A stretch of 64,000 nt of DNA, taken from Escherichia coli (GTDB lineage: Bacteria; Pseudomonadota; Gammaproteobacteria; Enterobacterales; Enterobacteriaceae). This document shows, piece after piece, positions 63,924-64,000 of this stretch (position 1 is its first letter; each line of letters starts with the position of its first letter). The notes beneath the pieces are model-generated. The model worked only from the letters and a program-made list of their open reading frames with translations. It was not told the DNA's origin and did no database searches. Location: the NCBI RefSeq assembly GCF_003334255.1, contig NZ_QOWU01000001.1. The stretch is one strand, 5' to 3'. Both the position numbers and the translations under genes were made by a program.

Positions 63924-64000
63924 GGTGATGCTGCCAACTTACTGATTTAGTGTATGATGGTGTTTTTGAGGTGCTCCAGTGGCTTCTGTTTCTATCAGCT
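63924..64000 (+). mobile_element. insA: IS1 insertion sequence, terminal 77 bp only (terminal inverted repeat and first codons of insA); element continues beyond window end
   Basis: ggtgatgctgccaacttactgatttagtgtatgatggtgtttttgaggtgctccagtggcttctgtttctatcagct is the IS1 end; GTG GCT TCT GTT TCT ATC AGC encodes the InsA N-terminus (M)ASVSIS. Confidence 0.9.

Follow-up and report, generated by a model that had tools for sequence, protein, structure and literature searches.

What does the IS1 element that begins downstream of rpsT in this Escherichia coli genome stand for: a plain insertion between two genes, or the edge of a segment that has been lost? The stretch of DNA analysed here (64,000 nucleotides, called the window) breaks off inside this element, and its last 77 bp (63924-64000, plus strand) are identical to positions 1-77 of the 768-bp IS1A of E. 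coli K-12 MG1655 when the two sequences are compared. The MG1655 record places IS1A at 19796-20563 of NC_000913.3, with insA1 (b0022) and insB1 (b0021), and the window agrees with it in these 77 bp, in orientation and, to the base, in the junction, the difference being that the host there is K-12 while the host of the window is not. The end of the window is the left end of IS1, of the copy named IS1A in E. coli K-12; an annotation of the element exists already, and the locus is known. Among E. coli records, 100% matches to this part number in the thousands, in features labelled as IS1 transposase.

The gene next to the element is rpsT (63409-63672, plus strand), an 87-aa open reading frame for the 30S ribosomal protein S20 that carries this annotation in MG1655 and in all relatives fetched. 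It is followed by an intrinsic terminator at 63696-63723 on the same strand, with a CCCGC/GCGGG stem, seven T and a run of A before it; terminator-like hits fall at 63703-63716, and a scan of 62000-64000 against Rfam gave only sub-threshold chance hits, on this terminator. A strong terminator between rpsT and IS1A has been described and is thought to shield IS1A from read-through transcription (PMC12428005). The distance from the rpsT stop codon to IS1 is 251 bp, in keeping with the figure of about 250 bp in an earlier note made from the letters of the window. At 63924-63946 (plus strand) the terminal repeat IRL reads GGTGATGCTGCCAACTTACTGAT, which is the exact 23-nt left inverted repeat of IS1. 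This 23-mer matches once in the window with up to three mismatches allowed, and not at all in 100 dinucleotide-preserving shuffles. Inside and just past the repeat, a consensus scan predicts a promoter-like site, CTGCCA-16-TATGAT (63931-63958, plus strand), presumably the known insA promoter in IRL. The GTG at 63979 is position +56 of IS1 and the annotated start of insA, a gene that reads away from rpsT and of which the window holds only 22 nt (63979-64000, plus strand): GTG GCT TCT GTT TCT ATC AGC, that is the start and six codons, and one further nucleotide. The earlier identification of an IS1 end with its terminal repeat and the beginning of insA is thereby confirmed by the exact repeat and by 77 identities in 77 bp. 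It had also been claimed that no other mobile-element sequence lies in the window, which agrees with the corresponding MG1655 interval, where none is annotated and relative to which the window has no insertion.

Read in reverse complement, MG1655 20487-84538 corresponds to the window and is collinear with it over the whole length. The 8.7 kb at 55258-64000 are identical in the two genomes, and the rest contains more than 60 SNPs, of which a few are scattered; apart from single bases, differences in length are confined to yabP (about 29 bp) and a REP element (85 bp). The source of the window is not K-12 but a close, phylogroup-A-like relative. For positions 10000-26000 no complete RefSeq genome gives a 100% match, and the best matches (99.9%) are G6/7 and G8, both human commensals. 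The doubt about strain identity in the earlier note was therefore well placed, given a patch of SNPs in polB, an intact pentapeptide-repeat frame and a split thiP among the differences from MG1655. In polB (19991-20822), about 45 mostly third-position SNPs against MG1655 stand between near-identical sequences on either side, which looks like a short recombination tract. The pentapeptide-repeat frame (25176-26012, minus strand) is an intact 278-aa frame with repeats of the GA(T/N)PD type where K-12 has the split yabP/yabQ, the K-12 version showing two 1-bp deletions and about 29 fewer bases of repeat. An extra T at 10396 relative to MG1655 splits thiP into two overlapping frames (10018-10467 and 10361-11629); it lies outside any long homopolymer and may reflect a real pseudogene or a sequencing error. 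The REP element between araD and araA (17711-17891) has one unit fewer than in MG1655, a copy-number difference of 85 bp, and an extra G stands at 38680, directly upstream of the yaaU start (MG1655 45806).

As the rest of the IS1 lies outside the window, its completeness and its right junction have to be read from relatives. Members of the IS1 family are recognised by imperfect terminal repeats of about 23 bp that start with GGT(G/A)ATG, a length of 768 bp, an insA that begins at about +56, a target duplication of 8-9 bp, and an insB' that overlaps insA, the two being fused through a -1 frameshift into the InsAB' transposase. The element is 768 bp long in MG1655, 720632, G6/7, PF9285, SHP24, SC516, J6 and D72. 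In the first four of these the 3.9 kb to the left (or as much as was fetched) are 100% identical to the window, and the element is followed on the right by a 138-bp piece of a fimbrial family gene that lacks the N-terminus, and then by nhaR. The two inverted repeats in these identical-flank relatives are 23 nt each and imperfect, pairing at 18 of 23 positions (78%). In the relatives, InsA and InsB' at full length score 91.3 and 143.7 bits against the IS1 family transposase model NF033558 of NCBIfam (cut-off 100), and RefSeq annotates the programmed frameshift in their IS1. The copy in the window is probably complete and competent for transposition as well. IS1A has the consensus IS1 sequence and is one of the two active copies in BW25113, where it accounts together with IS1E for essentially all IS1 transposition (PMC12428005).

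One family feature, which belongs to a simple insertion event and not to the element as such, is absent. The 9 bp on the two sides of the element in the relatives are ATTGAGGTA on the left and AGCAATTAC on the right, and since these differ there is no target duplication. In the window, ATTGAGGTA occupies 63915-63923, abutting IRL, and is presumed to be the surviving copy of an original duplication. Of the complete 768-bp element with a 9-bp duplication that the earlier note had proposed to look for, the length is borne out, while the duplication is absent in every relative with the same flank. This bears directly on the expectation implicit in that note, namely a simple insertion with a 9-bp duplication into intergenic DNA where no further genes had ever been present. 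All that the window itself contains is the left junction, and this alone is compatible with a simple insertion. However, of the eight genomes examined that have this left junction or one offset by 3 bp, all but J6 lack the duplication and have a truncated fimbrial gene next to the element, and the flank in the window is identical to the flanks of the K-12 type, which leaves a simple insertion extremely improbable.

What has been lost can be seen in genomes in which the site is uninterrupted. In the O157-like strain 107, CATTGAGGTA is followed by espX1, a fimbrial subunit gene, a chaperone gene, an usher gene, a fourth fimbrial gene and nhaR. Aligned to this locus (L006), the K-12-type breakpoints fall at 650/651 and 7156/7157: on the left, collinearity with strain 107 extends as far as 650, on the right it resumes at 7157, and there is no target duplication. 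The deleted span is therefore 651-7156, with the 768-bp IS1 standing in place of 6,506 bp that comprise espX1 and a chaperone-usher fimbrial operon with a G+C content of 37%. The claim that IS1 marks the edge of the collinear block gains in content from this, as in the relatives a deletion junction lies here. The deleted segment is O-island 1 (OI-1, z0020-z0025) of enterohaemorrhagic E. coli O157:H7 EDL933, which has been described as a fimbrial island with FmrA, a motility repressor, among its products (PMC10877973). OI-1 occupies this very site in genomes without the IS1 deletion, whereas in the lineage of the window it is gone except for a 3' remnant of its last gene. The uninterrupted junction between rpsT and espX1 was found in 3,655 of 5,426 complete E. 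coli genomes; the presence of the island is therefore the usual condition, and the structure with IS1 is a derived one. OI-1 is usually presented as specific to O157 in comparison with K-12, but about two thirds of the complete genomes have the uninterrupted junction. "O-island 1" is in this sense ancestral DNA that K-12 lost by way of IS1, and not a gain of O157.

The derived structure was counted in the same 5,426 genomes. A 120-bp probe for the K-12-type left junction matched 535 of them, 521 at an identity of 99% or more, and a 328-bp probe matched 581, which is 46 more. The comparison of occupancy across strains that had been suggested earlier thus gives between 535 and 581 genomes with the left junction against 3,655 with the uninterrupted site. 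The structure had been regarded as a feature of the K-12 lineage; it is indeed present in K-12 but is not specific to it, given these counts and a sample of 60 carrier genomes in which about two thirds were K-12 laboratory derivatives and about one third natural isolates, from humans, pigs, poultry, cattle and dogs.

On the right side the carriers divide into two classes. The K-12 right junction (L006 7157) is present in 422 of the 5,426 genomes and a second one (L006 7068), first seen in SHP24 and SC516, in 107; in the latter the deletion is 89 bp shorter and 89 bp more of the fimbrial gene are kept. One left junction, common to the base and set in the same local haplotype, is thus combined with two nested right ends. 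Comparison of the two classes shows no difference in the adjoining 1.1 kb on the left side and 1-2 mismatches in 2.3 kb on the right side, whereas further out on the left they diverge by about 1.35%. This divergence allows the window to be placed by linkage, as over its 3.9-kb flank it has 100% identity with carriers of the K-12 right junction, against a difference of 1.35% from those with the shorter deletion; G6/7, the genome closest to the window, has the K-12 structure. The window would accordingly belong to the K-12-type class, and what is predicted past its end is 691 more bp of IS1 (positions 78-768), AGCAATTACTACTCTTTTCAG, the 138-bp fimbrial remnant and nhaR on the opposite strand. 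The junction serves as a lineage marker that assigns the window to K-12-like E. coli, although it is not K-12.

Several other genomes show independent IS1 events close to the two breakpoints. In J6, an IS1 oriented as in K-12 lies 3 bp left of the K-12 site; it has a perfect 9-bp duplication, CACATTGAG, and the espX1 side is intact. D72 and four other genomes have the left junction of J6 and its left-flank haplotype, and a deletion that reaches L006 7168; J6 and D72 form a pair of precursor and product. At the right site, NDM6 has a simple IS1 insertion at L006 7170-7177 with the 8-bp duplication CTTTTCAG, the element being a divergent isoform in which 28 differences to IS1A are counted; about 17 further genomes have the same alignment statistics, NDM6 being the one that was inspected. 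In 2017.15.02CC an inverted IS1 joins position 1035 of espX1 to L006 7169.

Taken together, these structures are best explained by a deletion anchored at IS1. It is probable, as judged from the junctions, that IS1 inserted past rpsT, that intramolecular transposition from its IRR side then deleted the island, leaving two nested alleles, and that the window carries the K-12-type allele. IS1 would have inserted 251 bp downstream of rpsT and duplicated ATTGAGGTA. In a subsequent replicative transposition within the same molecule, IRR would have attacked a target within the last fimbrial gene, and the DNA between them would have been lost as a circle. A single IS1 would then remain, joined to the new target without a duplication, and it is this adjacent deletion that would account for the absence of the target duplication. 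One insertion could in this way have given rise to both alleles, with right flanks at 7068 and 7157, either by two independent deletions or by a second deletion that extended the first. The classical gal and lac deletions are anchored at an IS1 end in the same manner and are IS1-promoted adjacent deletions by intramolecular replicative transposition. The locus shares with them that the IS is kept, that one flank is unchanged, that the duplication is absent and that nested ends have the IS-anchored side in common. The classical cases are laboratory deletions, whereas here natural alleles have become fixed in lineages and the mechanism is read from structure alone.

The deletion might also have run in the opposite direction: IS1 would first have entered the fimbrial gene, and an adjacent deletion starting from its IRL would then have extended leftward to a point past rpsT. 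IS1 does recurrently target the 3' end of this gene (7157, 7168, 7169 and 7170-7177). Yet the junction common to the two classes is the left one and not the right, which speaks against this explanation: the K-12 type and the type with the 89-bp shorter deletion would have to be two independent deletions ending at the same nucleotide. The pair of J6 and D72, moreover, presents the left insertion as the precursor, and a second probe, for IS1 at 7157 with intact upstream fimbrial sequence, found no such genome among the 5,426. A leftward deletion is accordingly very unlikely.

An origin by recombination between two elements deserves more weight but is still unlikely. Here, two IS1 copies in direct orientation, one past rpsT and one in the last fimbrial gene, would have undergone RecA-dependent crossing-over that removed the island together with one copy. 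The product of such an event is indistinguishable by sequence from that of an adjacent deletion, and IS1 does insert independently both at the right site (the NDM6-type insertion at L006 7170-7177 with CTTTTCAG) and at the left site (J6). Against this, neither of the junctions expected of a two-copy K-type state occurs in the 5,426 genomes, the NDM6 isoform is not the partner, given its 28 differences from IS1A, and two right ends combined with one left junction and haplotype would need two separate second insertions. For the IRR-side deletion itself, the exact precursor before the loss, in which IS1 would be followed by ATTGAGGTA and the espX1 side, was sought with a synthetic probe and is likewise absent from the 5,426 genomes; the only full-length match is the 3-bp-offset site of J6. 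A metagenome scan for the precursor gave no matches, but the positive control, the K-type left junction, was found on a single contig, so the scan was insensitive and its negative result is uninformative.

The positions of the junctions form a pattern of their own. A 21-bp stretch near the 3' terminus of the last fimbrial gene of OI-1 holds at least four independent IS1 junctions (7157, 7168, 7169 and 7170-7177), and past rpsT two junctions lie no more than 3 bp apart (L006 647/650; window 63920-63923). Both clusters lie in AT-rich DNA with a local G+C content of 30-38%, and the clustering suggests two target hot spots for IS1. It is possible, and put forward here tentatively, that these two hot spots (248-251 bp past rpsT and about 20 bp at the fimbrial 3' end) have driven a repeated and independent loss or disruption of OI-1 in commensal lineages, possibly under selection. 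As FmrA, which is encoded in OI-1, represses flagellar motility, loss of the island might increase motility.

E. coli B (REL606/BL21) might have been expected to share the K-12 junction, which proved wrong. In REL606 (NC_012967.1 19658-24404, locus L008) a different IS1 lies inside espX1, in the opposite orientation and with its own duplication. The interval between rpsT and nhaR has likewise been eroded by IS1 in this strain, but by a separate IS1 event and with a separate deletion in the usher, and the K-12 junction is absent. This separate deletion removes the fimbrial subunit gene, the chaperone gene and the N-terminus of the usher, and the same truncation of the usher is present in J6 and NDM6.

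The locus presents, in natural genomes, a clean case of what are probably nested deletions anchored at IS1, together with apparent target hot spots of the element. Literature searches returned no paper on the missing duplication or on the nested deletions, yielding only the study of IS1A activity (PMC12428005) and the OI-1 review (PMC10877973); what the comparison adds to the annotated element is modest, namely the missing duplication, the nested OI-1 deletions, the hot spots and a junction that is not specific to K-12. A further element lies nearby: the IS186/IS421 copy by mokC/hokC, known from K-12, is absent in SHP24 but also present in G6/7, J6, D72, SC516 and REL606 (L007 5276-6388, L009 16246-17358 and L008 1444-2556), and could serve as a second lineage marker in this region.
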